32,000 nucleotides of DNA from Zestosphaera tikiterensis (GTDB lineage: Archaea > Thermoproteota > Thermoprotei_A > Sulfolobales > NBVN01). Shown piece by piece: positions 303 to 28,969 of this stretch; the stretch's first letter is position 1, and each line of letters starts with the position of its first letter. The stretch is taken from assembly GCA_003056265.1 (NCBI GenBank), contig NBVN01000004.1, forward strand, positions 300,001 to 332,000, in the 5' to 3' direction. Position numbers and translations under genes: made by a program. The notes below the pieces were generated by a model that saw only the letters and a list, made by a program, of their open reading frames with translations, was not told where the DNA came from and searched no databases.

Positions 303-1367
303 ATGAGTCGATGTTGCGTTAAGACGGGTGTCGTTGGTTGGGGTGCGTACATCCCCCTCTACCGGTTGAGGTCTAAGGAGATAGCTAGCTTGTGGGGTTT
401 CGACCCAAACGTGGCTGACTCTATATGGATTGAGGAGAAGTCTGTAGCTTCAGTAGATGAAGACGCGATAACTATGGGGTGGTACGCAGCTAAATACGCT
501 TTAGTTAGGGGTGGGGTTAACCCTGAAGACGTAGGTGCTGTTTTCGTAGGTACTGAATCCAAGCCGTATGCGGTTAAACCATCCTCAACAGTTATAGCGG
601 ATGCTTTAGGGATTTCCAGGAAGAAATTAGCTACGGATTTAGAGTTTGCGTGTAGAGCTGCTGCTGAGGGGATTAGGTTAGCAGTAGCTTTAGTTTCAAG
701 CGGTAGTATCAAATACGGTTTATCTATAGGTTCCGATACAGCTCAAGCAAGCCCTGGAGACGTGCTTGAGTTAACGGCTTCTTCAGGTGCTGTTGCGTTT
801 TTAATAGGTCCTGCCGAGGAATCGGTTGCGGTGTTTGAGGGGTTAACGACGTACGTTACTGACACACCGGATTTCTGGAGGAGGGAGGGTTCTAAATACC
901 CATCTCATGGCGAAGGATTTACAGGTGAGCCCGCGTACTTCCATCATATAATCTCTTCAGTGACTATGTTGCTGGAGGAGTTAGGTCTGAAGCCCTCGGA
1001 TTTCGACTACGCAATCTTTCACCAACCCAACGGTAAGTTCCCTCTTCAAGTGGGGAGGGCTTTAGGATTTCCTAAGGAGAAGATCACCCCAGGTTTAGTA
1101 ACGCCGTGGATTGGGAACACCTACAACGCTTCAGCTCTGTTAGGCTTAGCTAAAGTTTTAGAAATCGCTAAGCCGGGTCAGAGGATTTTAGTCGCTCCAT
1201 TCGGGTCTGGAGCCGGTAGCGATGCTATGAGCTTAGTAGTCACCGATAAAGTTTTAGATAGGGTTCATAAAGCACCTACTGTGGAGGAGTTAATTAATAG
1301 GAAGAAATACGTAAGTTATGCTGAATACGCTAAATCAAGAAACTTAATCTTACGGAATGTGGGGTGA
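303..1367 (+). CDS. Hydroxymethylglutaryl-CoA synthase (archaeal type)
   Basis: Motifs VFVGTESKPY (catalytic Glu), DLEFACRAAAEG (nucleophilic Cys), AIFHQPNGKFP (His) and PFGSGAGS. Length of about 350 aa is typical. It is first in an HMGCS/thiolase/DUF35 gene trio. ATG 303 is preferred over the track's TTG 291. Confidence 0.9.
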   Translation: MSRCCVKTGVVGWGAYIPLYRLRSKEIASLWGFDPNVADSIWIEEKSVASVDEDAITMGWYAAKYALVRGGVNPEDVGAVFVGTESKPYAVKPSSTVIADALGISRKKLATDLEFACRAAAEGIRLAVALVSSGSIKYGLSIGSDTAQASPGDVLELTASSGAVAFLIGPAEESVAVFEGLTTYVTDTPDFWRREGSKYPSHGEGFTGEPAYFHHIISSVTMLLEELGLKPSDFDYAIFHQPNGKFPLQVGRALGFPKEKITPGLVTPWIGNTYNASALLGLAKVLEIAKPGQRILVAPFGSGAGSDAMSLVVTDKVLDRVHKAPTVEELINRKKYVSYAEYAKSRNLILRNVG

Positions 1368-1371
1368 TGGA

Positions 1372-2511
1372 ATGTTGAAGGCTTACATAGCATCTGTTGA
1401 GATGCTTAAAATAGATAGACACTACGATAAAAGCTATGTAGACATGGCTTTAGAAGTTATTGACGCTGTGTTAAACGGTGTTGGCTTAACCCCCTCCGAA
1501 CTGGATTACATTATAGTATCTACAGCTTTCAACAGCTTATTAACACATCAGGTAGGGTCTTCCTACATCTTAGCTCAGTACTTAGGCGTTAAAAACGTTA
1601 ACGTAGCGTCTGTAGAGGCTGGTGAGGCTTCAGGCGCTGCCGCGTTAGATTACGCGGCAAGCCTGGTTAAGTCAGGCAAAGCAAGCAAAGTTTTAGTTGT
1701 TGGTTTTGAGAAGATGAGTGAATATCCCTCATGGATTGTAAATAGGGAATATTCGAAAATACTTAACTACATGGTTGAAGGTATTAAAGGTGTTACGCCA
1801 CCCGACTACGCCGCCATAATTATGAAGGAATATATGAGTAAATACAACGTTACGAGGGAAGACGTGTTTAAATGGAGTGTTAAAATGCATGAAAACGCTT
1901 CTAAAAACCCATACGCTCAACTGCCTTTCAAAATATCTAAAGACTCCTACGTAAAATCTTTAGTTATGTCAGACCCTATAACAATGCATGATTCGTTCCC
2001 CGTAGGTGATGGGGCGGCGGCAGCGTTAATTGTAGGGGATGGCTTCACAAACAACGCACCTAAAGAACTTGTTGAGTTAGTTGACGTTGAGTCAAGCGTG
2101 AATCTACCGCTGTATTTAAGGGAGGATCTTACAGTGTTTGAAGCTACGGCTAAATCCTTAAGCAAGTTAACAAGTAAGCATAGGGTAAGCGTAACTAAAG
2201 ACATGGCTTTAAACGTATATGACACGTATAACATCTACGGACTTATAACGTTAGAGTCTTTAGGTGTTGCCGAAAGAGGGAAAGCACATGAAGTCATAGA
2301 TGAGATGCCGTATTTAAACGTAGGTGGTGGTTTAAAAGCTAGAGGCCATCCCGTAGGCGCTACACCCTTATATCAATTAGGTGAGCTCTATAAGTTGATG
2401 ACCGAAGGTTTCGCCGGTATGAAATACGATGGGGAGTACGGCATAATTCATTCCATGTCCGGCCCCGATAATACTTCCTGGCTTGTTTTGCTTAGGAGGT
2501 GTGTGAGATGA
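1372..2511 (+). CDS. Thiolase-fold protein (acetyl-CoA acetyltransferase family) lacking the catalytic cysteine
   Basis: Thiolase-superfamily signatures GFEKMS, NPYAQ, PVGDGAAAALIV and NVGGGLKARGHPVGAT. It sits between HMGCS and DUF35. The nucleophile position reads VEAGEASG (GAG at 1624-1626), and the only Cys is three residues from the C-terminus. Start is ATG 1372 (track: ATG 1357). Confidence 0.85.
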   Translation: MLKAYIASVEMLKIDRHYDKSYVDMALEVIDAVLNGVGLTPSELDYIIVSTAFNSLLTHQVGSSYILAQYLGVKNVNVASVEAGEASGAAALDYAASLVKSGKASKVLVVGFEKMSEYPSWIVNREYSKILNYMVEGIKGVTPPDYAAIIMKEYMSKYNVTREDVFKWSVKMHENASKNPYAQLPFKISKDSYVKSLVMSDPITMHDSFPVGDGAAAALIVGDGFTNNAPKELVELVDVESSVNLPLYLREDLTVFEATAKSLSKLTSKHRVSVTKDMALNVYDTYNIYGLITLESLGVAERGKAHEVIDEMPYLNVGGGLKARGHPVGATPLYQLGELYKLMTEGFAGMKYDGEYGIIHSMSGPDNTSWLVLLRRCVR

Positions 2512-2921
2512 AGCACTCAATCTCTATATTCTGGAGAGATAGGGAAAACCATTACAAGCTGTTAATAACTAAATGCCGGAACTGCGGTAAGTCGTCGTAT
2601 CCGAAACTGAAGAGATGCCCATACTGCGGTTCAACCAATGTCGAGGTGGTTGAGTCTAAAGGGCGTGGTACTTTAGTGAATTACACTATAACGTACTTTA
2701 GAGTGGATGGTAGTGAAGCAATGCTTCCTAAAGTTATTGGCCTTGTAAAGTTAGATGAAGGGGTTAAAGTTCCGGCAGAGATAGTTGATGTACCAGATTT
2801 AAGTAGTTTAAAACCTGGTCTCGAGGTTGAGGCGGTTTTAAGGAAGTATTCAAGTGATGACCCGCATGGTTTAATATATTACGGGCTTAAGTTTATACCG
2901 AGTATAATTAAGAAGCAGTGA
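2508..2921 (+). CDS. DUF35 zinc-ribbon/OB-fold protein (scaffold subunit of the archaeal thiolase/HMGCS complex)
   Basis: CRNCGKSSYPKLKRCPYCGS is a four-Cys zinc ribbon, followed by an OB-fold-like C-terminal half. ATG 2508 overlaps the upstream TGA as ATGA and lies about 8 nt after AGGAGG. The track start is GTG 2499. Confidence 0.85.
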   Translation: MKHSISIFWRDRENHYKLLITKCRNCGKSSYPKLKRCPYCGSTNVEVVESKGRGTLVNYTITYFRVDGSEAMLPKVIGLVKLDEGVKVPAEIVDVPDLSSLKPGLEVEAVLRKYSSDDPHGLIYYGLKFIPSIIKKQ

Positions 2922-2979: not shown

Positions 2980-4236
2980 ATGGTAGATTTCGTGTCCTTA
3001 CTCTCCAGCAAGTTGGAAGTTTTCAAAGCCTCCGAGATTAGAGAGTTACTTAAGTTAACTGAGGGGAAGAACGTAATAAGCTTGGCTGGAGGCATGCCCG
3101 ACCCGCAGACATTTCCTAAGAAGGAATTAGCTGAGATAGCTAAGGAGGTAATCCTCGAAAGAGGTGAGAACGCTCTTCAATACGCCCCAACAGCTGGCGT
3201 AACTGAGTTTAGGAAGGAGTTAACCAGGTATTTAGAGCGTAAAGGAGTTAAAGTAAATCGTGAGGATAGCATTATAGTAACTACAGGATCGCAGCAAGCG
3301 CTTGACTTAATAAGTAGGGTTTTCATAGATCATAACGACGTGATAATAGTTGAATTACCTACTTATCTAGCGGCTTTAAACGCTTTCAACATCTCAAAAC
3401 CTGAGGTTGTGGGTATACCTATAGATGAGGACGGCATGAAGACAGACCTCCTAGCTAAAGAGCTTAAGAGGATCTACAGCGAAGGTAGGAAGGTTAAGTT
3501 TATATATACGATACCAGTAGCGCATAACCCAGCTGGAGTTACGATGAGTTTAGAAAGGAAGAAGGAACTTCTGGAGCTTGCTTCAAAATACGACATACCG
3601 ATAATTGAGGACGACCCCTACTCGTACTTCGTTTATGAAGATGGTGTCGACACAACACCTCTTAAAACACTGGATAGAGAGGGTAGGGTAGTATACTTAG
3701 GTACCTTTAGTAAGATATTATCGCCTGGTCTTAGGTTGGGTTGGGTTTTAGGCAATAGCTACGTTATTGACTTACTTGAAAGAGCTAAGCAGTCGGCAGA
3801 CCTCCACACGGCCACGTTATCGCAGTATATAGCTATGGAAGCGATACGGAGGGGCGTTGTTGACGCTACAATTGAGAAAGCTAAACAGATATACAGAGTT
3901 AAGAGAGACGTTATAATCGACGCATTAACGGATAACATGCCTGAAAACACTTGGTGGCCTAAGCCTGTGGGAGGGCTCTTCCTGATGGTGTTCTTACCCT
4001 CTCTAGAGATAGACACCAAGAAGATGTTGCCTGAAGCTATAGAGAGAGGCGTGGCTTACGTTCCCGGAGCCTCATTCTTTGCTAACGGAGGCGGTTGGAA
4101 CAGCATGAGGTTAAACTTCAGCTTCCCACCGCCGGAGAAACTCAATGAAGCCATCAAGATATTAGCGGATTTAGTTAAAGAGAAGATTAAAGGACCTACG
4201 GTTAAGATCACTCCGGAAACTTTCTATAGGGTTTAG
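2980..4236 (+). CDS. PLP-dependent class-I aminotransferase (2-aminoadipate/aromatic/kynurenine-type)
   Basis: Motifs HNPAG, EDDPYSYF, GTFSKILSPGLRLGW (Schiff-base Lys) and MRLNFS. 418 aa. Substrate cannot be assigned from sequence alone. Confidence 0.85.
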   Translation: MVDFVSLLSSKLEVFKASEIRELLKLTEGKNVISLAGGMPDPQTFPKKELAEIAKEVILERGENALQYAPTAGVTEFRKELTRYLERKGVKVNREDSIIVTTGSQQALDLISRVFIDHNDVIIVELPTYLAALNAFNISKPEVVGIPIDEDGMKTDLLAKELKRIYSEGRKVKFIYTIPVAHNPAGVTMSLERKKELLELASKYDIPIIEDDPYSYFVYEDGVDTTPLKTLDREGRVVYLGTFSKILSPGLRLGWVLGNSYVIDLLERAKQSADLHTATLSQYIAMEAIRRGVVDATIEKAKQIYRVKRDVIIDALTDNMPENTWWPKPVGGLFLMVFLPSLEIDTKKMLPEAIERGVAYVPGASFFANGGGWNSMRLNFSFPPPEKLNEAIKILADLVKEKIKGPTVKITPETFYRV

Positions 4237-4256: not shown

Positions 4257-5129
4257 CTACTGTTTAACGTTTGAAGCTACGTAAGATACGCGTGGGAAAA
4301 CCTCAACTAAGTTTTTAACTTCGTTGAAATCGTTGGTAAACGCTACGTTGGAGTCGAGTACATATTTAACTATACCGCTTAACGCCTTCCTACCTGAGCC
4401 GTAGTTAAACCTTGAAGGCCTCACTAAAGACACTTTCTTAGGTTGCCCGAAATATCTTAAAGTAATGTGAGGCTGTTTAGGCGTTAAGTAAATAATACCT
4501 GCGTTGGTTAAGTACTTAGTTATTTCGAAACGAGGGTTTTCCGTAACTATTGCTAAGTCGTAACTTCTTAACTCACTTAAGTCTTTCCTTACAGATATCC
4601 CGACCTCATGTAAAGGCTTGAAAACTTCATCGTTACAGAATGCCGTAACGTCTACTAAGGATTTGAGGGAGAGGCTTAACACATATGACGTGAAGTCACA
4701 TCCAACAATAATCGCTGAGTTTAACCTCCGAGCTATCTTAAGCAACTCTTCTACGTAGCTAAACTCTATGTATAGACTAGAGTACTTATCTATCGGCTCC
4801 CCTTTAAGCTCTATTAAACACGTTGATGGAATAACCGAATACTCACTTAATAAACCATCAACGTCTAAACCTAGGAAACCAACTCCACAGAATGGAACTA
4901 CGCCGTAGATCTTACCTACGACAACGTTGGACTCAACACCCGCTTCAACCACCCTAACTACTCCAAAACTTCCTAAAGTTACGTTACGTATCATCACCTC
5001 AGAAAAACCCGTCAACTTGGGTGAGTACGTCATAGCAGTTAAAACCTTACCTAAAACCCACCCCTGAGGTATCGGTGGTATAGGTACCTCCCTAACCTCA
5101 ACCCCTTCATACCACTTAACGCTTTTCAA
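4257..5129 (-). CDS. MDR (zinc alcohol dehydrogenase)-like protein with degenerate Zn and NAD(P) motifs
   Basis: The overall template matches: a GroES-like N-terminal half (VREVPIPP..GWVLGKV.., LGSFGVVRVVEAG, DGLLSEYSVIPSTCLIELKG), then a Rossmann-position segment AIIVGCDFTSYVL. The usual GxCxxD/GHE zinc ligands and GxGxxG are not present. The family call is tentative. Confidence 0.4.
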   Translation of the reverse strand: MKSVKWYEGVEVREVPIPPIPQGWVLGKVLTAMTYSPKLTGFSEVMIRNVTLGSFGVVRVVEAGVESNVVVGKIYGVVPFCGVGFLGLDVDGLLSEYSVIPSTCLIELKGEPIDKYSSLYIEFSYVEELLKIARRLNSAIIVGCDFTSYVLSLSLKSLVDVTAFCNDEVFKPLHEVGISVRKDLSELRSYDLAIVTENPRFEITKYLTNAGIIYLTPKQPHITLRYFGQPKKVSLVRPSRFNYGSGRKALSGIVKYVLDSNVAFTNDFNEVKNLVEVFPRVSYVASNVKQ

Positions 5130-7170: not shown

Positions 7171-8125
7171 AACCGTCTACTTAGGTGAGTCTTTAACAAC
7201 GGTTCTCTCAAAGCCTAAAGATGAAGACCTGATAATGTCGTACACAGGAAGTGAAAGTACCCTCTCTGGATGGGTTTTAAGAGATTTAACAATAGATAAA
7301 GCACCGATTTTCGTTGAGAATCCGAAGTGTGTTGAATCGCTAGGGGGACATCCTGTAGAGTTAGACTATCACGTTGAAGTTCTAGGCACTGAAGAAGACT
7401 TAAGCAGGAAGTTTAATGGTGTGGAAAACCTTCGAATGTTTTGGCTACATAGATTCAAATCTAAAGCTTATATACCGCATGAGGGTTGGTCAACAGTATT
7501 TAAAGTTATGAAGTCTAAAATCAAGACTAGTAGGCTTTATACAAGCTTAAGTGAGGTTTCAGTAAGTGATAAAACCGTTAAGTTGGAAGGAGGTGTCTTC
7601 ATAAGCTACGAGAAACTCATTAATACAATACCGCAGAAACTGTTCTTAAGTATAGTTAAAAGTGATGACTTACCTAAAACCCCCTTAAACGATTACGTCC
7701 ACATACCGCTCCACATAACTGCAGTCGTAACTAAAAACACTTCATCTGTTAGGGAGGGTCTTGTTAAAGTATATTCGCTAGGTAAGAAGAGATATATACC
7801 CTCACATGTAGTCCTCTATAAAACATTCGATGTTGAATATACGTTAAATTACGTGATAACTCCATTAACGAGTGAAAGCATTAAAAGCGAGCTTTTATCT
7901 CAAGCGATTTCAACGCTTAAGAAGCTAGGCGTAGAAGTTAAACCTATATACGCTATACGTACTTACTTCGAACCTTATGGGGTTTTAGCGGGTAAACCTG
8001 AAAACGTTGTAAAATCGTTGGAGAAATACGATATAGAGTTCCGCGGCCGTTACGGTATGTGGTCTGAGTTGAGTATATGTGATATCTTAAGAGGTTTTGG
8101 ACTCACCACTACCGAGCTTACGTGA
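7142..8125 (+). CDS. Hypothetical protein, possibly a degenerate FAD/NAD(P)-binding (amine-oxidase/UGM-like) fold
   Basis: 327-aa ORF. The N-terminus [14 protein letters not shown] occupies the position of a beta1-GxGxxG-helix dinucleotide motif, but the glycines are lost. The C-terminal [17 protein letters not shown] resembles the GR-x-G-x-W-x-Y...D motif at the end of UDP-galactopyranose-mutase/amine-oxidase-type flavoproteins. Start is GTG 7142 or ATG 7235. Confidence 0.45.
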
Positions 8126-8944
8126 AATCACTTCCTTAAACTTCTTGAGTTCGTTTTCATCCATTAACCAAAACTCGCCTTCAGACGGGAAAGAACCTTT
8201 TTTAACGTCATCTAAGTACTTCTTTAAAGCGTTAACTACAACTTCACTTAAGTTACTATATCTCCTAGCGAAAGGAGGTGGTTCGGGGTTTACACCCAGT
8301 AAATCGTAAATCACAAGTATTTGACCATCGCACCAAGGACCGGCGCCTATACATATAGTAGGTATTTTAAGCAGTTTAGTTATTTCCTCAGCGACTTGTG
8401 CTGTAGTGTATTCAATGACTATAGAGAAAGCGCCCGCCTCCTCTAATGCTTTAGCTGATTCAACAATCTCTAAAGCGTCATCAACTTTCTTACCCCTAAG
8501 TTTATAACCGCCCAGCTCTAAATACCTCTGCGGGTTTAAACCTACGTGACCCATCACTGGAATTCCAGCTTTAATTAAAGCCTCTACTTTATCAACAACT
8601 TCTAAACCTCCTTCAAGTTTAACCGCGTCAGCACCTAGTTTCAACATCTTACCTGCGTTTCTTACGGCTTCAGACTTACTGACTTCATAACTTAGAAAAG
8701 GCATATCAGCAACGACTAAGGATTTAGGTTTAGCGTTAAGAACGGCTTTTAAGTGGTGAGCGATTTCATTTAAAGTGACGGGTAACGTTGATTTATAACC
8801 CATAACCACCATACCTAAAGAATCCCCAACGAGTATACCGTCAATGCCAGCTAAGTCAGCGAAAAGAGCTTCATAGTATGAATAAGCAGTAACCATAGCT
8901 ATTTTTTCACCAGCTTTCTTCTTCTTAATGAAATCGTAAGGCAT
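8087..8944 (-). CDS. panB: 3-methyl-2-oxobutanoate hydroxymethyltransferase (ketopantoate hydroxymethyltransferase)
   Basis: Motifs [39 protein letters not shown] and [27 protein letters not shown] 8944 (MPYDF...) is preferred because a TATA-like box lies about 30 nt upstream. The track start is GTG 8965. Confidence 0.92.
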
Positions 8945-8970
8945 TAACTTACCTACCAAGCTCACACCAC

Positions 8971-9103: not shown

Positions 9104-10036
9104 TTAGAGTCTATAGTGCTGTCTTTCCTTAGCCTTAACTAACATTAAGAGAGTTTCATTCACGGGCGTTTTAACATTTACCAGCCTGCCCTTCCTCACA
9201 ACCTCACCATTTATGAAGTCCACCTCAGTTTTACGTTTGTTGATGATGTCTTGAAGCATTGAGGAATAGTTATCGCCTGTGGACATGGCTATCTTAACGT
9301 ATTCTTCGTAGGGGTTTGACGGAAGCTTCACACCTAATGCGTTAGCTACCTCAACAACCTCATCCACTATTTTATCTGCTAAGTTGCGGAGGACTTCATC
9401 CTCAACTAAAGCTCTATTCTTAACACCTAAAACAGCTGTTAAAGGGTTTATAGCCGCATTAACAGCTAGCTTTAACCACATATAAGATTTAATGTCGTCA
9501 ACCACCTTAACGTTTAACAAGCTTAACTTGCCGGCTAGGTTACTAAGCACCTTCTTAGGGAGTCCTTCAGATCCAACGTAGCTTTCGGAACCCCCAACCC
9601 ATACGTAGTGGGTTGGTTTCTCTCTATACACGCCGTGAGAAAGCACTAAAGCCGCTACTCTCTCCTTACCTACTTCTTTAACGGCTTGCTCGTAAGCAAA
9701 TAAGCCGTTCTGACACGTAACTATAAAGCCTTTAGAACTTAAACTAGTTCTAACTCTAGAGAGCGCTTCAGGGAAGTCGTAATTCTTAGTCGTTATGAAG
9801 ATTAAATCAAAGACCACTCCCTTAGTAGATATTTCCTCATAACTTGTGTATGAAGCCGCTAAAGTGACTACGTCGCCTACAGGCGTTTGAAGTTTAATAC
9901 CTCCCTCCCTCAAAACGGCTTCCGCCCTCCTAGAGTCTTTAAAGATTAGATATGGTTTCATACCGGCTTTGTTTAACGCGTGCGATAACAACGCACCTAT
10001 AGCTCCCGGACCCACTACAGCTACATTATCTGTCAT
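9104..10036 (-). CDS. panE: 2-dehydropantoate 2-reductase (ketopantoate reductase)
   Basis: Motifs VAVVGPGAIGALL (Rossmann), MWLKLAVNAAINPLTAVLG (catalytic Lys region) and SMLQDIINKRKTEVDFINGEVV. ATG 10036 is preferred. The track start is TTG 10054. Confidence 0.9.
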   Translation of the reverse strand: MTDNVAVVGPGAIGALLSHALNKAGMKPYLIFKDSRRAEAVLREGGIKLQTPVGDVVTLAASYTSYEEISTKGVVFDLIFITTKNYDFPEALSRVRTSLSSKGFIVTCQNGLFAYEQAVKEVGKERVAALVLSHGVYREKPTHYVWVGGSESYVGSEGLPKKVLSNLAGKLSLLNVKVVDDIKSYMWLKLAVNAAINPLTAVLGVKNRALVEDEVLRNLADKIVDEVVEVANALGVKLPSNPYEEYVKIAMSTGDNYSSMLQDIINKRKTEVDFINGEVVRKGRLVNVKTPVNETLLMLVKAKERQHYRL

Positions 10037-10060
10037 GATAAACCCTTCCCACAATCATTA

Positions 10061-16050: not shown

Positions 16051-16863
16051 TTGAGTGCCTGCGAGGATAGGGAAGAAAAAGATAAAAACGTTTTTAAAGC
16101 TTTAATACCTAAGAACCACCCACGTTATGAATCCCTACTTTTAAGGGAGAAGATAATCGAAGGTCTTAATGAAGGCTATGTTGCTCAAGCTGGGTTAATA
16201 GCTCATGGGAGGGGGGAATGCTTTGATTACTTAATAGGTGAGAAGACCATAGACCCAGCTTTAAAGGCTATAGACGCTGCTGCCGCTGCTTTAATCTTAG
16301 CTAAGCATCCAGTGATTTCAGTAAACGGTAACGTAGCTGCTTTAGTCCCTAAGGAAATAGTTGAATTAGCTAAGAAAGTCAACGCTAAGTTAGAAGTTAA
16401 TTTATTCTATAGAACCGAAGAAAGAGTTAGAAAAATAGCTGATATACTTAGAAGATGCGGTGCTGACGAAGTTTTAGGGGTTGATGACGCTACGGCTTCT
16501 ATCCCAGAGTTATTTAGTGAGAGGAGGAAAGTCAGCCCTAAAGGAATATATATAGCAGATGTTGTTTTAGTTCCTTTAGAGGATGGGGATAGGACGGAAG
16601 CTTTAAGGAAGATGGGGAAAACCGTAATAGCTATAGACCTTAATCCGTTATCAAGAACCTCTAGATCAGCAAACATAACTATAGTGGATAACGTGGTTAG
16701 AGCCATACCTAAACTTACTGAACGCGTCGAAGAACTTAAAAAACTTGATAGGGAGGTGTTGCGGGACATATTAAGGAACTACGACAACGATAGGGTTTTA
16801 GCTGAAGTCATAACATACATAATGAATAGATTGAAAGACCTAAGTAAGGAGTTAACTAAGTAA
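16051..16863 (+). CDS. 4-phosphopantoate--beta-alanine ligase (archaeal phosphopantothenate synthetase)
   Basis: [16 protein letters not shown] and the overall 270-aa pattern match the archaeal PPS family. It lies close to pantoate kinase and CoaBC. TTG start, with no early in-frame ATG. Confidence 0.8.
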
Positions 16864-17596: not shown

Positions 17597-18490
17597 TCAT
17601 GAACTAAATAGAGTTCCATGTCGGCATATTTTAAACACGCCTAGAGGTTCACTAATCTTCTTTAAAACTTCGTAGGTTTCGTTGATGTAGTTCGCCTGAG
17701 TTAATACTGCGATAGTGCCTTTCTTTACGAAATACCCTAAGACCGCACCTTTGCTTAGGAGAGTTCGTAGGGAATCATCCACTTTATCTTTTAATGTATT
17801 TTCCAGCATCCCCGTCTTAACGCTAAACTCATGCGCTTGCTCTATGAACGTATCCAACGAAGGATTTCTTAAAAACTTTAAATAAGACTCTAGCCCATAC
17901 TTCCGTATTTTACCGGCATAGAGCTTAAGCATTTCAGGCGTTGTTAAGCCTTTCCTAACCAATCCAACACATACAGCCACATTTTCCTTTACAGGTACGA
18001 CGTCAACCTCACCTACCCCAGGAGGGCCCGGTTTTAAACGTATGACTAAACCCCCGCCAATTAATTCAGCTATAACGTCGCCAAGGCCTGTTCTTAAAGT
18101 TACCTCCGCCATGTGAGCCAATACCCCAACTTTTTTCAACGTTATAGGTATGGCTCTTTTAATTAGAGCTGATGTGGCTAACGTAATAGATAGAGCAGCG
18201 CTTAAACCAAGTCCCTGACCTAAACCTACGGGACTCGCTACAAAAGCTCCTAAATCCTTAACTCCTGCTAAGCTCTCCATAACTTGCTTTAAATCCTGAC
18301 CTACCTCAACCAAGTTTAACTTAAGAGTTTTTTCGCTGAAGTTTTTAGAAGTCACCACAGGTTCGAGGGTTAACCCAACGCCTAGGGAACCTGTGGTTAT
18401 GGGGTCTGAAGTATAGTGTGGTATCCAAAACCCCGTTATGTGGAGAGGTATTTTAAGCTCTCTTACCATATGCGAGTTCATCTCTAACAA
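17597..18490 (-). CDS. Pantoate kinase (GHMP-kinase family, archaeal CoA pathway)
   Basis: GHMP motif PVGLGQGLGLSAALSITLA and N-terminal PLHITGFWIP. It overlaps the 3' end of coaBC, so the two are probably co-transcribed. Alternative in-frame ATG starts lie at 18481 and 18469. Confidence 0.8.
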   Translation of the reverse strand: MLEMNSHMVRELKIPLHITGFWIPHYTSDPITTGSLGVGLTLEPVVTSKNFSEKTLKLNLVEVGQDLKQVMESLAGVKDLGAFVASPVGLGQGLGLSAALSITLATSALIKRAIPITLKKVGVLAHMAEVTLRTGLGDVIAELIGGGLVIRLKPGPPGVGEVDVVPVKENVAVCVGLVRKGLTTPEMLKLYAGKIRKYGLESYLKFLRNPSLDTFIEQAHEFSVKTGMLENTLKDKVDDSLRTLLSKGAVLGYFVKKGTIAVLTQANYINETYEVLKKISEPLGVFKICRHGTLFSS

Positions 18491-19712
18491 TGTCTAATAT
18501 CCTCCGTGCTACAACCTCCTTCAAAGACTTAGGTATGTGTTCTTTAAAGCCGTTCTTACCGACCACCACTACCTCATTATAATCTGAGGCGAAGCCTATC
18601 TCAGGGTTGCTAACATCGTTAGCTACTATGTAATCAAACCCTCTGCTAATTAACTTATGTTGTGCTAACTCTATGAGCTTATTTAAATCGTTAAACACGG
18701 TTTCGGCAGCAAAACCTATAAGCAGGCCTTTGTAAACTTCCCTAACCTTAGCGGAGATCTTAGGGGTGGTTTCAAGAACTATTTGAAGTTCGTTTATGTC
18801 TGACTTTATCTTCTCCTTATAAACAGTCCTAAACCTAAAGTCTGAAGGCGCTGCCGCCATTATCACAGCGTCATATTTACGACTTCTAACCTCATTTAAA
18901 ACAGCTTCCAACATCTCTTCAGTTGATTCAACAGCTATGTTCCTAGTGTAATACGGTTTAGACACAGATAAAGGTCCGTGAATTAAAGTCACGTTAGCCC
19001 CTCTGAAGTAAGCTTCTCTAGCTATAGCAACACCCATCTTACCAGAGCTTGAATTCGTTATATATCTAACGCTATCTAACCTTTCACGCGTAGGTCCTGA
19101 AGTCACTAAGATGTTTAACCCACGTAGATCCTTACCCCTTAAAGTGACCGCTTCAACCGCTGCTATGACGTCCTCCGCATCTGGGAATTTCGCACGGCCC
19201 TCAACTAAGTTAGGCCATAAAACCGTAACGCCTAAGCTCGTTAGAAACTCAAGTGCTTTAACTATTGGTGGGGACTTCCATAGGCCTTCATGCATAGTAG
19301 GAACTAATATTAACGGCTTTCCTAAACCAAGCATGTTAACCGCTGTTAACGTTACTGGATTATCGCCGATGCCTGCCGCTATCTTAGCTATGGCGTCAGC
19401 ACTAGCTGGAGCAACTGTAAACGAACTGCCTTCAAAACTTAACGCAACATGTCCTGTCTCACCTTTAAACTCCGTGAAAACCTTAGTTCCAGTAGCCCAC
19501 TCAATAAGCGTTGGGTTTATAAGTTCTGTTGCTGCTTTACTCATCACAACGTATACGTCGGCACCTCTCCTAATAAGCTCTCTCATGATGTCGATTACTC
19601 TATATATAGAGACGGAACCCGTCAAACCAAAAACTAGCTTAACCCCTTCAAGATGCTTAGATTTAGTGCTTTTAATCTCGTCGGCAGGATGTCGTAAAGG
19701 TTCCTTCAGCAT
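18453..19712 (-). CDS. coaBC: Bifunctional phosphopantothenoylcysteine decarboxylase / phosphopantothenate--cysteine ligase
   Basis: CoaC half: GLTGSVSIYRV, APASADAIAKIAAGIGDNP. CoaB half: VTSGPTRERLDSVRYITNSSSGKMG, MAAAPSDFRF, KIKSD, VANDV. Confidence 0.92.
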   Translation of the reverse strand: MLKEPLRHPADEIKSTKSKHLEGVKLVFGLTGSVSIYRVIDIMRELIRRGADVYVVMSKAATELINPTLIEWATGTKVFTEFKGETGHVALSFEGSSFTVAPASADAIAKIAAGIGDNPVTLTAVNMLGLGKPLILVPTMHEGLWKSPPIVKALEFLTSLGVTVLWPNLVEGRAKFPDAEDVIAAVEAVTLRGKDLRGLNILVTSGPTRERLDSVRYITNSSSGKMGVAIAREAYFRGANVTLIHGPLSVSKPYYTRNIAVESTEEMLEAVLNEVRSRKYDAVIMAAAPSDFRFRTVYKEKIKSDINELQIVLETTPKISAKVREVYKGLLIGFAAETVFNDLNKLIELAQHKLISRGFDYIVANDVSNPEIGFASDYNEVVVVGKNGFKEHIPKSLKEVVARRILDIVRDELAYGKRA

Positions 19713-20333: not shown

Positions 20334-20883
20334 GCGATGTGGTAAAGACCTTCCTCTCGTTTAAGATTATTGCTGTAGACGTGTTTATCATGCCTACGTA
20401 GTCTTCAAGACCTAAAGATATGAAGTAAGAGGGCTTCACCTCATATATTACTTGAGTGATTTCCGGTAATCCAACCCTTACATTAAGACTTCTTAAGCGA
20501 TCTCCAAACCCTTTAGGTGGGAAGTAAGACGTTATTATAGCCTTAGATTTCCCTAAGGTAGTGTGGAGTTGGATTAAACGGGCTATGTTTTGATACGTTT
20601 CAATACCGCCAATGCCTCCTAAGCTTACATTACCTAAATCTACGAACGTACCATCAAGTAAGATACCTAATGAACGACTTAACTTAGATATGTATATATC
20701 GTCGAACTTACTCGTAACTAAGTATACAGGTTCTTTAAATGCTTTAATTAATTCAGGCAGGGGTATTTTCGGCCCACTTAAAAGCAACGTTAAATCGTAG
20801 TTCGTGTCATCTTCAGTAAGTTTCATTAAGTCTTTCCTAGACTTAACACGTCTACCTAAAACAACCCTTACCAACATATTCAA
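20317..20883 (-). CDS. Metallophosphoesterase-like protein with all metal-ligand motifs substituted (probable pseudoenzyme)
   Basis: It threads onto the calcineurin-like phosphoesterase template. LLLSGPK stands for D-x-H, YLVTSKFDD for GNHD, SLGGIGG is present, AIITSYFPPKGFGD stands for H-x-PP-x-G-x-x-D, and FISLGLED for GHxH. It overlaps the upstream CitG-like ORF by 32 nt. Confidence 0.45.
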   Translation of the reverse strand: MNMLVRVVLGRRVKSRKDLMKLTEDDTNYDLTLLLSGPKIPLPELIKAFKEPVYLVTSKFDDIYISKLSRSLGILLDGTFVDLGNVSLGGIGGIETYQNIARLIQLHTTLGKSKAIITSYFPPKGFGDRLRSLNVRVGLPEITQVIYEVKPSYFISLGLEDYVGMINTSTAIILNERKVFTTSLNLTL

Positions 20884-21775
20884 ACACCTTATACATGGCT
20901 ACAGCAGTAGCTACGATATCTGAGGTGCTTCCTGGGTTTACGCCTTGACGTCTAACCCACAGATCTAACTCTTCTTTTTCAGAGGCGTTGAAAAAACTCC
21001 ATTTAGAAGCTATACTCTTAAAGAATACGGCGGTACTTAAATTCCTAGCTTTAACGATTAACGTATCTAAATACTTCGAGAGCATGTAGGTATGTACGTC
21101 TCTCAAAACTTCATAGAAATCCTCTACGGGACTTAACTCAGCGATTCTTTCGTATGCTTCAAGGGTTTTCCTATATCCGTTGATGAGTTCATACGTAACC
21201 ATGTCCGTATAGCTTGAGTTTAAGAAAACGTCCCACAACGTTAACTTACTTAAATTGCTGTAGTCATTAATTGTTACTGAAGGTATCCTACCTACATACT
21301 TACCTAGGTGTTTGATAGAGGCTTTCTTTAACGCTTCATAAAAATCTACTGGATCCTCATCCTTCAGCTCCTTAATTAAATAGGGCGAGTATGTCTTAAC
21401 TAAATCAACGGGTGATTGAATTGGCTTACCATCTCTTAACATGAGGGCGGTCATGAAAGTTAATGGTATAGTAAGTATTAAAAAACCTAATGAAGTGTTT
21501 GTCTTTATGTATGGGTGAGCCATTAAATCTGAGATAATATTTCTTAAGTTACGACCTAATTCTAACTTACTGCTTTTTAAGAACTTAATGAGCATCTCAA
21601 CGTAATGTTTCTTAAGCGTTAACGAGGTGTATATAAACTGGTTTATGTTTAAGTCTTTAACGCCTTTAAGGTTGCTTACGGTACTTATTTTGTTCGGTGC
21701 TAAAGCTTCAATAAGTATAGATGCCGATATTAAATCAGCTATTACATATATTGATTTAGTGTTAACATTAATCAC
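20852..21775 (-). CDS. CitG-family (triphosphoribosyl-dephospho-CoA synthase-like) protein
   Basis: EALAPNKISTVSN..KDLNINQFIYTS, KTNTSLGFLIL, DTLIVKARN and VNPGSTSDIVA line up with the CitG motifs SPKPGLVD..HKDM..F..SA, NTHKGSIF, DTNVASRGG and SPGGSADLL. Several conserved residues differ. Confidence 0.65.
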   Translation of the reverse strand: MINVNTKSIYVIADLISASILIEALAPNKISTVSNLKGVKDLNINQFIYTSLTLKKHYVEMLIKFLKSSKLELGRNLRNIISDLMAHPYIKTNTSLGFLILTIPLTFMTALMLRDGKPIQSPVDLVKTYSPYLIKELKDEDPVDFYEALKKASIKHLGKYVGRIPSVTINDYSNLSKLTLWDVFLNSSYTDMVTYELINGYRKTLEAYERIAELSPVEDFYEVLRDVHTYMLSKYLDTLIVKARNLSTAVFFKSIASKWSFFNASEKEELDLWVRRQGVNPGSTSDIVATAVAMYKVFEYVGKGCFR

Positions 21776-22490
21776 CTTTTAAGTTCATAACGACGTAGAT
21801 CTTCTCTACGCTATCACCTATTAACTCACGCCAAGCATTACCTAAAGCTATTATAGAGAAGAGACCCACCGTTAAAGCACCGCTCATTCTAACGAGCTTT
21901 ATTAAAGCCAGCGATGTCCTCCCAGTACTTAATAAATCATCAACTATAAGTACGCGATCATTAACTCCTAAGGCCGTTGTTGGCAGGAATAGATGCATAA
22001 TGGCTGGAGGGTCTCTAGCTAGGTAGCTTGTTTGATAGTAGTCTTTAACCCCTACTTCAGGTCTTCTTCTCGCCACAACTAACTTAGCGTTTAAGACTTC
22101 CGCCACCGCCACTCCTAAAGGTATGCCATCAACTTCAACTGTAGCTACGGCTGTTATGTTGTACTTCTGAAACTCCCTAAGAGCTATGAAGGACAATATC
22201 TTAAGCATTGGTATGTCGTAGATAATCCTCGACAAGTTATATATGTTTTTACCCGCTTCAACTATCCTCTCAGAAAGCAGCTTCTCAACTACGGTTGGGT
22301 TAAGTAGTTTCTCAACAAGCTCAGCTGCCCTCTCATGACTAGGCCTTATCCTCTTATTTATATATCTCCAAAGACCCGGAGCTGGAAGGCCTGTAAGCTT
22401 CTCAAGATCTCTATACTTCATTACTTTCTTGTAAGCTTTAAGTAACTCTACAGCTATAGTCCTTACATCTACGTCCATATTGACTACCAT
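21768..22490 (-). CDS. Winged-HTH + type-I phosphoribosyltransferase-domain protein (PurR/GfcR-like putative regulator)
   Basis: N-terminal HTH-like segment YRDLEKLTGLPAPGLWRYINK. PRPP-binding loop RVLIVDDLLSTGRTS. It overlaps the downstream CitG-like ORF by 8 nt. Confidence 0.75.
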   Translation of the reverse strand: MVVNMDVDVRTIAVELLKAYKKVMKYRDLEKLTGLPAPGLWRYINKRIRPSHERAAELVEKLLNPTVVEKLLSERIVEAGKNIYNLSRIIYDIPMLKILSFIALREFQKYNITAVATVEVDGIPLGVAVAEVLNAKLVVARRRPEVGVKDYYQTSYLARDPPAIMHLFLPTTALGVNDRVLIVDDLLSTGRTSLALIKLVRMSGALTVGLFSIIALGNAWRELIGDSVEKIYVVMNLKGD

Positions 22491-24671: not shown

Positions 24672-25736
24672 TTGAATGAATACGTGAATCCTAACGAAGG
24701 CTTAAAAGAAGTCAATCATTGGGTAGTTAAACTCAGGAATTCTAAACCTATAGTTTTAGGTGCTGGTGGTGCTGGAGACGTAATATCTGCTTATATATTC
24801 TGTGAAGTTCTTAAAGACTTCTTCAACGTGTTGGAGTGCTTACCCGTAGGTGTTTTATGGGAGAGATGGGTTTTAGACCCTTACCCGGGACCTATACCTA
24901 AGTCCCTAGTTAGAAACGCTAGAGTAGGTAATTGCGTGTGGGTAAATCGGGACAGCTATGTAGAGAGGCCTAACTACGTCTTCAAGCCTCAAGCATCGTC
25001 TATATCAGAAGTTTTAAGTAGGGAAATCCCTACGTTAACCCTCGAATATGGTGTTGAGGGGTGTGTAAAATGTTTAGACGAGTTGACAGGATTGGGTTAC
25101 GGACCTGTAGTAGTTTTAGACGTTGGTGGAGACATACTTGCTGAAGGGCATGAAGAAAATCTCTGGTCTCCGTTAGCTGACGCAATAAGTTTGGCGGCGG
25201 CAAGCCATTATGACTCCATAACAGCTGTCTTAGCTCCTGGCGCCGACGGAGAATTAACGCAGGACGAAGTCCTTAAGAAAGTTGAGAAGCTTTTAAAGTT
25301 GGGAGGATACGTTGGAATTCTCGGCTTATGGAATCACCATGTCAAGGCATATGAGGAGATATTAGATAAGACAGTTACTGAAGCTAGTAAAGCCCCGTAC
25401 AAAGTCCTTAAGGGTGTTTTAGGCGTTGAGAGAATAAGAGGAGGTAGTAGGGAGGTAACCCTCAACCCAATAACTTTAGTAGCTTTTATATTCAAGACGC
25501 ATGAAGTCCTTAAGTTAAATAAGCTAGCGGCAAGCATAACAACAACAAAAAGCTTAGCTGAAGTCGTTAAAATAGCTAAACAGCTTAACATATCTACAGA
25601 ACTAGATATAGAGTTAACGATAGCCAAGCTATATGGCGTAGGTCCGCATGTAAAACCCGATTGGAAATTAATAAAACGCTTAAAAACCGCAAACACCACA
25701 TATCTAACGGGGGGTCGAAGCAGCGGGGTGGGGTAG
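24672..25736 (+). CDS. DUF1152-like archaeal protein of unknown function
   Basis: Gly-rich GAGGAGDVISAY near the N-terminus, WERWVLDPYPGP, and LDVGGDILAEG. I associate this pattern with DUF1152 from memory. TTG start (or GTG 24684). The last 15 nt overlap the tRNA gene. Confidence 0.5.
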   Translation: MNEYVNPNEGLKEVNHWVVKLRNSKPIVLGAGGAGDVISAYIFCEVLKDFFNVLECLPVGVLWERWVLDPYPGPIPKSLVRNARVGNCVWVNRDSYVERPNYVFKPQASSISEVLSREIPTLTLEYGVEGCVKCLDELTGLGYGPVVVLDVGGDILAEGHEENLWSPLADAISLAAASHYDSITAVLAPGADGELTQDEVLKKVEKLLKLGGYVGILGLWNHHVKAYEEILDKTVTEASKAPYKVLKGVLGVERIRGGSREVTLNPITLVAFIFKTHEVLKLNKLAASITTTKSLAEVVKIAKQLNISTELDIELTIAKLYGVGPHVKPDWKLIKRLKTANTTYLTGGRSSGVG

Positions 25737-25799
25737 CCAGGTTAGCCCGCGGGGCTCATAACCCCGAGGTCGGTGGTTCAAATCCACCCCCCGCTACCA
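25722..25799 (+). tRNA. Initiator tRNA-Met (anticodon CAT) with encoded CCA
   Basis: Cloverleaf by hand: acceptor AGCGGGG/CCCCGCT, D stem GGGT/GCCC, anticodon stem CGGGG/CCCCG with loop CTCATAA, T arm GGTGG-TTCAAAT-CCACC, discriminator A, CCA. The A1:U72 pair and three consecutive G:C pairs closing the anticodon stem are initiator hallmarks. Confidence 0.92.
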
Positions 25800-26050: not shown

Positions 26051-26085
26051 TATTAGTTGAGCGTATATGAGATTAAGGGTTGAGT

Positions 26086-26817
26086 ATGGCGTTCGGTCCT
26101 CCAGCTATGGGTTACGATAGAGCTATTACGGTGTTCTCACCTGATGGTAAGCTCTATCAGGTTGAATACGCAGCTGAAAACGTTCGGAAGGGTTGGACAA
26201 CTATAGCTTTAAAGACTAGGGACTTTGGGGTTTTGCTTGCTGAGAAGAGGAAGATATCGTCTTTGATTGATATGAATTCCATAGCTAAGATATTCTTAGT
26301 TGATTCACATATAGGTGCTTCCTTCGCTGGCTTAGCTGCGGATGGGAGGATTCTCATAGATTACGCGAGGAGAACGGCTTTAAACTATAGATTCATATAC
26401 GACGAACCTTCAGACGTGGAGTATGTTGTTAGGTCTGTATGCGACGTTAAACAGCTATATACGCAACACGCAGGTGTACGACCATTCGGAGTTTCGTTGA
26501 TTTTCGTGGGTTATGATAAGAAGGGAGTGCAGGTATACAAGACTGAGATAAACGGTTATTACTTCGCCTACTTAGCTATCGCGGTAGGTTCTGGGGAGCA
26601 AGCAGCTGGTGAGTATTTAGAGAAGAACTACAATCCAAACATGTCTAGAGATGAAGCGATTGAGCTAGCTCTTAAGGCTTTAAGAGCGTCTCTAGAGAAC
26701 CCATTAACTCCAGAGCTAGTTGAGATGGGTGTTGTTTCTAGTGACGACGGCCTTTTCAGAAAGCTAACTGTTGATGAAATAGCTAAATACATACGTGAGT
26801 CAGGGGTCAATAAATAA
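26086..26817 (+). CDS. psmA: Proteasome subunit alpha
   Basis: GYDRAITVFSPDGKLYQVEYA is the canonical alpha-subunit N-terminus. ATG 26086 is preferred over the track's TTG 26080. Confidence 0.95.
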   Translation: MAFGPPAMGYDRAITVFSPDGKLYQVEYAAENVRKGWTTIALKTRDFGVLLAEKRKISSLIDMNSIAKIFLVDSHIGASFAGLAADGRILIDYARRTALNYRFIYDEPSDVEYVVRSVCDVKQLYTQHAGVRPFGVSLIFVGYDKKGVQVYKTEINGYYFAYLAIAVGSGEQAAGEYLEKNYNPNMSRDEAIELALKALRASLENPLTPELVEMGVVSSDDGLFRKLTVDEIAKYIRESGVNK

Positions 26818-27512
26818 TGAGTAGTAGGGATTATGTAATCGCTAGATATGAGAAAGGAGGTCATAAATTCGAGATATTAGTGAACCCTGATAAAGCGTTG
26901 AAGTACCGTGAGGGAAGCATTAAAGACTTAAGCGAAGTAGTTGTTGGGGATTACATATATAAAGACGTACGTAAAGGGGATAAAGCATCGCCGGAGGAGA
27001 TAGTTAAAACTTTTGGAACGGCAGATTTTAAAGCTGTTGCTGAGGTGATATTAAAGAACGGTGAGTTACAGCTTACAACAGATCAGAGGAGGAAGTTGCT
27101 TGATCAGAAGAGGAAGTTAATCATTAACTACATAGCTAAGTCTGTAGTAGATCCTAAGACTAAAGCGCCGATCCCACCGCAGAGAATTGAGAAAGCTATG
27201 GAGGAAGCTAAAATAACTGTAGATCTTTATAAATCAGTTGAGGAGCAAGCCGCTAAGATAGTTAAAGAGCTTACTAAGGTATTACCGCTTAAAGTAGCTA
27301 AGGCTTTAGTTACGATTAAAATACCGCCTGAGGTTGCTGGGAGAGCTTATCAGGAGGTTCGGAGGTTAGGTGAGTTGAAGAACGAGAGATGGTTGAATGA
27401 CGGCTCACTCCACGTCGAACTTGAAATACCTGCTGGTATGCAGGCTGAAGTTATAGATGCTGTGAATAGAGCCACTAAAGGGACGGCTGAAGTTAATATA
27501 AAGGTGATTTAA
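26817..27512 (+). CDS. Ribosome maturation protein SBDS/Sdo1 homologue
   Basis: ARYEKGGHKFEILVNPDKALKYREG is the FYSH-domain signature. Its ATG shares one base with the psmA stop. Confidence 0.9.
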   Translation: MSSRDYVIARYEKGGHKFEILVNPDKALKYREGSIKDLSEVVVGDYIYKDVRKGDKASPEEIVKTFGTADFKAVAEVILKNGELQLTTDQRRKLLDQKRKLIINYIAKSVVDPKTKAPIPPQRIEKAMEEAKITVDLYKSVEEQAAKIVKELTKVLPLKVAKALVTIKIPPEVAGRAYQEVRRLGELKNERWLNDGSLHVELEIPAGMQAEVIDAVNRATKGTAEVNIKVI

Positions 27513-28262
27513 TTGACGCAAGCCGAGCAAGAACAGAAACAGCAGAGTAGGTTTTTAGTAACTCCTGGGGATAAGGTAGTGGAAGGTGAGTATAAGCTAT
27601 TATCACCTCTAACAGCCTATAGGTTGGGCAACGCTTACTACGCCTCAGTTGTAGGATTAGCTGAAGTAAACGACGCCGAGAAAACGTTGAGGGTAATACC
27701 CTTAGAAGGTTTCTACTACCCTAAAGTAGGAGATTTAGTTATAGGGATAGTTGAGAACGTCGGGGTAACTAACTGGGAGGTAGATATTAAAGCTCCCTTC
27801 CCCGGCGTGCTTTACGCAGTTGATTTTCTTGGGAGGCCTGTAAACACAGCCAAAGAAAGTTTGAAAGACTATCTTGACGTCGGCGACGTAGTAATCTGCA
27901 AGATAGAAGCTTTCGATAGAACTAGAGACCCTGTGTTAACAGCTAAGGGTAAGGACTTAGGTAAGGTAGTTAAGGGAGCTTTAGTGGAGATAAACCCCGT
28001 TAAAATTCCTAGGGTTATCGGTAAGAAGGGATCCATGCAGTCAATGATAGAGAATGAGACAGGTTGTAAGTTAGTGGTGGCTAACAACGGCAGGATATTA
28101 ATTAATTGCGAGGATAGGGCGTATGAGGATATAGTAGTTTTAGCTATTAGGAAAATAGAAAAGGAAGCACATACTTCAGGGCTTACGGATAGGATAAAAG
28201 AGTTTATTGCGTTGGAAAAAGTTAGGAGGGGGTTGATAGGTGGTAAAGAAAGGGAAGCCTAA
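27513..28262 (+). CDS. rrp4: Exosome complex RNA-binding subunit Rrp4 (S1 + KH)
   Basis: [25 protein letters not shown] (S1) and [14 protein letters not shown] (KH GxxG). The TTG start directly follows the SBDS stop. Confidence 0.9.
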
Positions 28263-28968: not shown

Positions 28969-28969
28969 T

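Follow-up and report, generated by a model that had tools for sequence, protein, structure and literature searches.

A thiolase-fold protein with glutamate at the nucleophile position in the mevalonate-entry operon of Zestosphaera tikiterensis and related archaea

We analysed a stretch of 32,000 nucleotides from the hot-spring archaeon Zestosphaera tikiterensis (contig NBVN01000004.1, positions 300,001 to 332,000), called the window below, which contains an operon for the entry into the mevalonate pathway. The operon encodes HMG-CoA synthase (HMGCS), a thiolase-fold protein and a DUF35 protein. In the thiolase-fold protein the nucleophilic cysteine is replaced by glutamate, and a second active-site residue, a histidine, by tyrosine. 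Comparison with homologues shows that the change from cysteine to glutamate is ancient, that it defines one clade, and that it is one step in a series leading to loss of the gene. The protein is probably a structural, catalytically inactive subunit of an HMGCS complex, and would have originated by reciprocal degeneration after duplication of the operon.

Formation of acetoacetyl-CoA is the first and thermodynamically the hardest step of archaeal membrane-lipid synthesis. The accepted solution for this uphill condensation is a complex of thiolase, HMGCS and DUF35. The canonical ping-pong reaction of thiolases depends on a nucleophilic cysteine. Across a large group of Thermoprotei that are hyperthermophiles and include a cultured species, Acidilobus saccharovorans, proteins without this cysteine occupy the thiolase position.

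The operon and its altered active site

The three genes are tightly packed on the forward strand. The HMGCS gene (303..1367, with an alternative TTG start at 291) has all catalytic residues intact, with the codons of Glu85 at 555-557, Cys117 at 651-653, His240 at 1020-1022 and Asn272 at 1116-1118. This tetrad is aligned with that of the HMGCS from the archaeal complex of Methanothermococcus thermolithotrophicus (6ESQ; phmmer E-value 6.6e-118). Both equivalog cut-offs of NCBIfam are passed (NF003274, 538 bits with cut-off 244; TIGR00748, 464 bits with cut-off 353). The thiolase-fold gene follows at 1372..2511 (379 aa, stop codon TGA at 2509-2511). The ATG of the gene for the DUF35 scaffold protein (2508..2921, 137 aa) overlaps this stop codon (ATGA), and thus translation of the two genes is coupled. 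The DUF35 protein is free-standing and consists of a zinc ribbon, intact with four cysteines (Cys23, 26, 37 and 40), and an OB fold (Pfam zf-ChsH2, 2.8e-11; OB_ChsH2_C, 1.2e-14; phmmer against DUF35 of 6ESQ, 1.1e-20). A first-pass annotation of this DNA had stated that HMGCS keeps its Glu/Cys/His triad and DUF35 its zinc ribbon, and both statements hold.

The thiolase-fold protein is recognised by the Pfam domains Thiolase_N (5e-18) and Thiolase_C_1 (1.5e-9). The family signatures GFEKMS, NPYAQ, PVGDGAAA and GGGLKARGHPVGAT, as well as the drifted motifs GATP and HSMSGP, are all present as annotated earlier. The nucleophile site reads VEAGEASG. Its glutamate, encoded by GAG at 1624..1626 as verified at the codon level, aligns in phmmer with the nucleophilic cysteine of 7YVY, a thiolase from Pyrococcus furiosus (iEAaCASG), and with Cys85 of the complex thiolase (6ESQ, vEAaCASG), in agreement with the first-pass assignment. 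The number 85 is valid only for the start at 1372, because gene callers use the upstream in-frame ATG at 1357, which overlaps the HMGCS stop codon and yields a protein of 384 aa. The former numbering is used below. As had been noticed, the only cysteine of the protein stands three residues from the C-terminus (residue 377 of 379). A nucleophile elsewhere in the protein is ruled out by this position and by the many members of the same clade that contain no cysteine at all.

A second lesion had been missed. The HDxF loop of thiolases reads YDTY, and Tyr283 (TAT, 2218..2220) aligns in phmmer with His284 of 6ESQ. In the M. thermolithotrophicus complex the H284A substitution abolishes formation of HMG-CoA from acetyl-CoA, and in PfACAT of Pseudomonas the H294Y substitution nearly abolishes thiolysis (PMC12960953). 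Since both the cysteine and the HDxF histidine are needed and both are absent here, the canonical reaction is excluded, as the first reading had concluded from the cysteine. We infer that thiolase chemistry was lost with the replacements Cys85->Glu and His283->Tyr. The histidine of the GHP motif is retained (GHPVGAT; His326, CAT at 2347..2349) and is a likely partner of Glu85.

The complex of M. thermolithotrophicus is encoded by the same three genes, all of which are clear homologues of those in the window (thiolase E-value 4.4e-41). It differs in having Cys85 and His284 where the window protein has glutamate and tyrosine. The thiolase of the window has diverged from this complex further than its partner (144 bits, as compared to 397 for HMGCS). 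Given this divergence and the loss of both residues, channelled conversion of acetyl-CoA to HMG-CoA is not expected. The AlphaFold2 model of the protein (pLDDT 96, pTM 0.95) has the thiolase of the archaeal complex as its best PDB match (6ET9_C, TM-score 0.94, root-mean-square deviation 1.7 Å), ahead of ST0096 of Sulfolobus tokodaii (0.83-0.91), Sal (0.85) and Ltp2 (0.83). Its NCBIfam scores are below the thiolase cut-offs (NF004720, 252 against 420; NF053570, 181 against 600); a cysteine-containing paralogue from a related genome (P0206, 435) and the thiolase of Hyperthermus butylicus (P0068, 431) both pass NF004720.

Proteins with glutamate at the nucleophile site, called Glu-type below, are variously named 'acetyl-CoA C-acetyltransferase' (JGI), 'Putative 3-ketoacyl-CoA thiolase' (A. 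saccharovorans) and 'thiolase family protein' or 'hypothetical protein' (NCBI). As some pipelines still name the gene thiolase, pathway reconstructions relying on it are probably wrong. In Glu-type genomes, automated calls of the mevalonate pathway probably score a dead enzyme as present.

Distribution and constraint of the glutamate-type gene

One genome per GTDB species was scanned with an HMGCS alignment. The closest 80 loci, all from archaea of the orders Desulfurococcales and Sulfolobales, were used, and the loci of A. saccharovorans and H. butylicus were added to them (82 loci). Among the 120 best database homologues of the thiolase-fold protein, 76 read G-E-x-S-G at the nucleophile site, and many are free of cysteine. 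The pooled set of 241 unique homologues comprises 113 proteins with glutamate, 112 with cysteine (Cys-type), and a few with Gln, Asp, Gly, Ala, Phe, His or Leu. Thus orthologues do carry the glutamate. The first-pass annotation had treated the change as a peculiarity of one protein; it is instead a deep, clade-wide state of the positional orthologue in this operon.

That the glutamate reflects a sequencing or assembly error, or that the gene is a decaying pseudogene, is hardly credible; the odd residue itself is the only point in favour. An identical protein, glutamate included, was found in an independent Logan assembly, and a 99% copy is present in JGI data. Relatives at 90% identity encode the same glutamate by GAA, and the codon counts in relatives are 31 for GAG and 6 for GAA. 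The open reading frame (ORF) is full-length, with a ratio of non-synonymous to synonymous substitution rates (dN/dS) of 0.073. Together with the 113 Glu-type homologues and the confident structural model, this rules out both explanations.

The thiolase adjacent to HMGCS has glutamate in 38 loci and in the window itself, cysteine in five (four in the Pyrodictiaceae cluster, and L054), aspartate in three, glycine in two, and histidine and leucine in one each. The GHP histidine is also gone in three loci with odd residues, L052, L069 and L080. In these genes, from Pyrolobus-like and other metagenome-assembled genomes, the nucleophile is replaced (by Leu, Gly, His), and neither the HDxF histidine nor the GHP histidine (GEV, GFV) is left; the active sites are wholly degenerate in ORFs that are otherwise intact. 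In a monophyletic group of about 19 Desulfurococcaceae loci, HMGCS is followed directly by DUF35 with a gap of a few bases and no thiolase gene between them. They include two complete Thermogladius chromosomes (L037, L061), Desulfurococcus (L074) and Staphylothermus (L021). HMGCS stands alone in Ignisphaera and in one other clade. Of Thermogladius, Desulfurococcus and Ignisphaera, the last was shown to keep a thiolase elsewhere: it has a separate pair of genes for a Cys-type thiolase and DUF35, so that the split set is apparently all-active.

The trees of HMGCS and of thiolase were constructed by neighbour-joining only. The residue and loss states fall on coherent clades of the HMGCS tree. In the thiolase tree the proteins without the nucleophile form one clade, with aspartate, alanine and glutamine near its base and then all glutamate; it is sister to the Cys-type thiolases of Pyrodictiaceae and has visibly longer branches. 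The Glu-type proteins thus form one clade of HMGCS-linked thiolases from archaea of the Desulfurococcales/Acidilobales type. Basal variants with Gln, Asp or Ala are P0061, P0072, P0160, P0162, L057/P0159, L039, L070 and P0177. Several of them are still 59-62% identical to Cys-type thiolases, and they may be intermediates of the transition from cysteine to glutamate. Four Gln-type sequences branching near the base of the Glu clade are reminiscent of the decarboxylating ketosynthases of the KSQ/CLF type, where CLF is the chain-length factor. The latter have Gln for Cys and a His-His pair and act on malonyl-ACP (acyl carrier protein), whereas the window protein has Glu and an SCP2-type thiolase fold, not that of ketosynthases (KS) I/II.

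The gene order in A. saccharovorans is HMGCS, Glu-type thiolase, DUF35, HMG-CoA reductase. This order recurs, with a Cys-type thiolase, in H. butylicus and in two other lineages. Genes of an oligopeptide ABC transporter are common to the upstream regions of Cys-type and Glu-type loci, including that of the window. Judged by this context, the Glu-type gene and the thiolase subunit gene of the mevalonate operon are positional orthologues.

Purifying selection acts on the Glu-type gene. In comparison with a 90% relative, dN/dS is 0.073 for the thiolase, 0.034 for HMGCS, 0.047 for DUF35 and 0.054 for the neighbouring aminotransferase. At matched HMGCS identity of 62-70%, thiolase identity is 65.6% in Cys-Cys pairs and 40.8% in Glu-Glu pairs, and the rate of the Glu-type relative to its HMGCS partner is approximately twice that of Cys-type thiolases. 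At 37 sites, conservation of at least 90% in the Cys-type is relaxed in the Glu-type, as against one site in the opposite direction. Three positions have switched to another conserved residue: A84G, C85E and N147A. These comparisons of homologues show that constraint on the Glu-type is relaxed and not abolished, and that the gene is not a pseudogene.

The three active-site histidines are kept in all 112 Cys-type sequences. Among the Glu-type, 19 of 112 sequences are without the HDxF histidine, as opposed to 0 of 112 in the Cys-type. These losses amount to two events, one in the subclade that includes the window and one in a singleton. In the Glu-type clade His173 is always kept, and the GHP histidine is kept in 110 of the 112 sequences covering the position and lost in two. 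The acidic or amide residue at the nucleophile site accompanies the retained GHP histidine, and the variants with Gly, His or Leu mostly lack it. The motif YDTY is limited to the Zestosphaera-like subclade (18 unique sequences), and Tyr283 is fixed in the sequences nearest to the window (P0001-P0014); elsewhere in the Glu clade the loop reads HDS[FY].

The YDTY loop bears on the possibility that the protein has acquired a new function. It could be a retro-aldolase or lyase similar to Ltp2 and Sal with Tyr283 as the base, a malonyl-CoA decarboxylase of the KSQ or TbSLP kind, or a thioesterase acting on the substrate or product of HMGCS. We consider this doubtful. Ltp2 and Sal (6OK1, 9MYR) are thiolase folds without the cysteine that operate with DUF35 domains, and their loops with Tyr, Asp, any residue and an aromatic one, YDHF and YDCY, resemble YDTY, as does YDCF. 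The tyrosine of these loops is the catalytic base in Ltp2, Sal and TbSLP; the second acid/base residue is Cys304 in Sal and Tyr344 in Ltp2, and the nucleophile site of Sal is Gly, not Glu (PMC12329534). The fixation of Tyr283 in the 18 closest unique sequences is in line with such a function. However, the motif is confined to one subclade, and its third residue is Thr, as compared to Cys or His in Sal and Ltp2. Further, DUF35 of Ltp2 and Sal is fused to a MaoC-type hydratase in steroid side-chain operons, whereas that of the window is free-standing. No hydratase was found in the window, and the neighbouring genes are those of HMGCS and an aminotransferase in a mevalonate context. The nearest proteins are true complex thiolases, both in structure (TM-score 0.94 for 6ET9, as compared to 0.83 for Ltp2 and 0.85 for Sal) and in sequence (phmmer E-value about 1e-41 for the complex thiolase and 1.8e-8 for 6OK1). 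Thus context and similarity speak against an Ltp2/Sal-type aldolase. The Ltp2-like option, one of three offered by the first-pass annotation, reduces to a local resemblance of the YDTY loop within the window's own sublineage.

Another thiolase fold without the nucleophilic cysteine is crenarchaeal. ST0096 of S. tokodaii (4YZO), of the SCP2 type, matches the window protein with E-value 4.6e-35, has Ser aligned to Glu85, and keeps both HD and GHP. ST0096 has been crystallised, and the available part of the report does not state its function (PMC6392133).

A second operon and the role of the subunit

A search with the Cys-type thiolase of H. butylicus produced Cys-type proteins that are 57-59% identical to it and do not adjoin HMGCS. 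In CAZXJO010000003.1 (206 kb) a Glu-type operon at 129-138 kb (L024) co-occurs with a second operon at 170-183 kb (L085). The latter encodes a protein of about 290 aa, called X here, then a thiolase with the nucleophile motif IEAACGSGG, and then its own DUF35. The same pair of operons is present in JAWBQY010000005.1 (L023 and L094). Two further co-occurrences are less direct (L040 with P0219; J7J20 P0034 with P0227, by a shared locus-tag prefix). Thus four related genomes have both a Glu-type operon and an operon with a Cys-type thiolase.

Protein X is a degenerate, shortened HMGCS, as judged by BLASTP (E-values from 4e-15 to 7e-9 over about 290 residues) and by an NCBIfam HMGCS score of 31.6 bits. 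Its catalytic tetrad is gone: Glu is replaced by Asp, the segment with Cys is deleted, His is replaced by Asn and Asn by Tyr. No above-threshold Pfam family was found for X. Genes for X were located upstream of unlinked genes for Cys-type thiolase and DUF35 at 5141-6001 in L085, 2075-2986 in L089, 2121-2984 in L097 and 3180-3989 in L101. The family has 13 members found among 5.8 billion proteins.

The all-active operon of H. butylicus can serve as a reference for both copies. Operon A, the type present in the window, is 62% identical to it in HMGCS and 41% in thiolase. In operon B, the second operon described above, the values are 25% for X and 58% for thiolase. A lineage with a single Cys-type operon has 64% and 62%, respectively. 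These reciprocal identities indicate that each copy kept one enzyme while the other decayed. Where one genome has both half-dead, mirror-image operons, reciprocal degeneration seems to have divided a channelling complex between them. We found no description of the Glu-type clade or of paired reciprocal operons in the searchable literature.

Thus the reading that we favour, with moderate confidence, is the following. An ancestral all-active operon would have been duplicated, and one activity would have been retained in each copy. Acetoacetyl-CoA would be supplied by the complex with the Cys-type thiolase or by other acyl-CoA metabolism, and would diffuse to HMGCS. The Glu-type subunit would be retained because it helps in assembly and in forming the CoA-binding site, to which all three proteins contribute in 6ESQ; HMGCS would be the sole catalyst of its complex. 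The active sites show the pattern of subunit loss: the thiolase lacks the cysteine and the HDxF histidine, and its HMGCS partner keeps the Glu/Cys/His/Asn tetrad. Membership in a complex is indirectly suggested by the order of genes in the operon, the ATGA overlap, and the fold, which is nearly identical to that of the 6ET9 subunit. The carboxylate of Glu85 would take over from the thiolate in the buried pair with the GHP histidine. This would explain the retention of an acidic residue, and a replacement partner for this histidine seems the simplest explanation of the retained carboxylate. An efficient separate source of acetoacetyl-CoA is conceivable: the KT/DUF35 pair of Sulfolobus acidocaldarius exceeds a thiolase acting by itself 60-fold in efficiency (bioRxiv 2024.07.05.601840), and by this example such pairs can condense efficiently alone. 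The first-pass annotation had listed a scaffold with the real thiolase encoded elsewhere. This option is favoured by the relaxed constraint and by the Cys-type thiolase and DUF35 genes of four related genomes; in the window's own sublineage, the cysteine paralogue that it implies was not found by a non-exhaustive search.

The tripartite architecture with one dead subunit kept for assembly is known in bacteria, in PhlACB (5M3K), MucABC (9VBO) and the PfACAT/HMGS-DUF35 complex of P. fluorescens. Operon B, with dead X, a Cys-type thiolase and DUF35, has the pattern of these complexes. In the described bacterial half-dead complexes the HMGS-like subunit is dead and the ACAT-like one is live. The operon of the window is their mirror image, and, unlike them, it serves archaea in primary metabolism, namely that of lipids. 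Pairs of half-dead operons bear on what a thiolase subunit contributes to HMGCS apart from catalysis and on how the uphill condensation is driven without channelling.

Genomes that hold both operons, separated by about 40 kb, suggest that the two could also assemble together. A Glu-type subunit or the whole operon A module would join the cysteine module of operon B, for instance as a Cys/Glu heterodimer, so that channelling would be preserved and the dead subunits would be adaptors or regulators. Live/dead heterodimers of the thiolase fold are established elsewhere, in KS/CLF and PqsBC, and provide a precedent. Both dead subunits are kept as intact ORFs, and the strong purifying selection on the Glu-type fits a specific role in interaction. 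However, tight translational coupling and a separate DUF35 gene in each operon point to complexes that are complete in themselves, and the DUF35 proteins of operons A and B are only 32-41% identical. Thus we regard co-assembly as unlikely.

Several observations weigh against a purely structural role. Although its codons have turned over synonymously and identity within the clade is otherwise only about 44%, the glutamate is strictly kept. Its retention together with His173 and His326 also fits a catalytic Glu/His pair. As estimated from the substitution rates, a dN/dS of 0.07 represents strong selection for a mere spacer. The existence of Desulfurococcaceae HMGCS without an adjoining thiolase gene suggests that the thiolase subunit may not be strictly required. 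Neither the 32 kb nor the further 5 kb that the matching Logan contig covers upstream contains a cysteine paralogue of the window's lineage. None of the best 120 Cys-type matches lies on the 757-kb Zestosphaera contig, and none of the 13 X proteins comes from the Zestosphaera-like sublineage, both searches being non-exhaustive. The strict retention of glutamate, the strong selection and the absence of a cysteine paralogue and of X among the proteins found in this sublineage are the reasons why our confidence in the structural role is no higher.

Glu85 might instead be catalytic, with acetoacetyl-CoA formed without a cysteine acyl-enzyme, either via an acetyl-glutamyl anhydride, as in class I CoA-transferases, or by direct Claisen condensation with glutamate as the base. 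The residue is retained as Glu, with Asp and Gln near the base of the clade, and is not random, both GAG and GAA being used for it. The GHP histidine and His173 are kept, and A84G and N147A are fixed alongside C85E, as in a remodelled site. No cysteine paralogue was found in the window's sublineage by the non-exhaustive search. However, the window protein also lacks the HDxF histidine that is essential in the archaeal complex, there is a net loss of conserved sites (37 against one) at a doubled rate, and cysteine paralogues are present in four related genomes. High temperature would also disfavour an anhydride, both energetically and through hydrolysis. Thus catalysis by the glutamate is improbable. 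Even less probable is the stronger form of this idea, that the Zestosphaera-like lineage has no cysteine thiolase at all and that Glu85/His326 and Tyr283 make or process acetoacetyl-CoA independently of cysteine, for instance via an acyl-glutamyl anhydride or by base-catalysed chemistry of the direct Claisen or aldol type. If true, this would be the first condensing enzyme of the thiolase superfamily without a cysteine acyl-enzyme, at the entry to archaeal lipid synthesis. The 'unconventional route' to acetoacetyl-CoA named in the first-pass annotation is unsupported, although the failure to locate a cysteine paralogue in this lineage by the non-exhaustive search leaves it some probability.

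Another acetoacetyl-CoA-forming enzyme beside the operon, such as an NphT7-like KAS III, was considered and is not among the inspected recurrent neighbours in the 82 loci. These neighbours, obtained by clustering of flanking ORFs and named from inspection of sequences without a Pfam scan, resemble ABC-transporter, aminotransferase, HMG-CoA reductase, radical-SAM and TBP proteins, and also include a protein of 290 aa.

Other genes of the window

No other thiolase was found in the rest of the window, which has a GC content of 41%. The operon is followed by a class I/II aminotransferase gene (2980-4236), which is conserved downstream of Glu-type and thiolase-less operons; none was seen beside Cys-type operons among the surveyed loci. 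Next is an ORF of 290 aa (4257-5129, reverse strand) without a match in Pfam or NCBIfam. Its homologues are found downstream in 30 of the 82 related loci.

Five genes of coenzyme A biosynthesis lie within 17 kb of this operon of CoA-thioester metabolism. They are, in this order, ketopantoate hydroxymethyltransferase (panB, 8087-8965, reverse strand), ketopantoate reductase (9104-10054, reverse), phosphopantothenate synthetase (16051-16863, forward), a pantoate-kinase-like ORF (17597-18490, reverse; NCBIfam E-value 1.7e-26, below the cut-off) and PPCS/PPCDC (18453-19712, reverse). In H. butylicus, panB and the reductase gene are situated just upstream of the HMGCS operon (L002, 1649-3423). A further CoA-related function is represented by a homologue of the CitG-like triphosphoribosyl-dephospho-CoA synthase (20852-21775, reverse strand), whose gene overlaps that of a protein with a phosphoribosyltransferase domain (21768-22490, reverse strand).

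The remaining part of the window contains a typical archaeal block of proteasome and exosome genes, for proteasome alpha, SBDS, Rrp4, Rrp41 and Rrp42 (26080-29863, forward strand), and the gene for AglB. The only tRNA gene noted, that of tRNA-Met (25722-25799), overlaps the last 15 nucleotides of a DUF1152 ORF (24672-25736).

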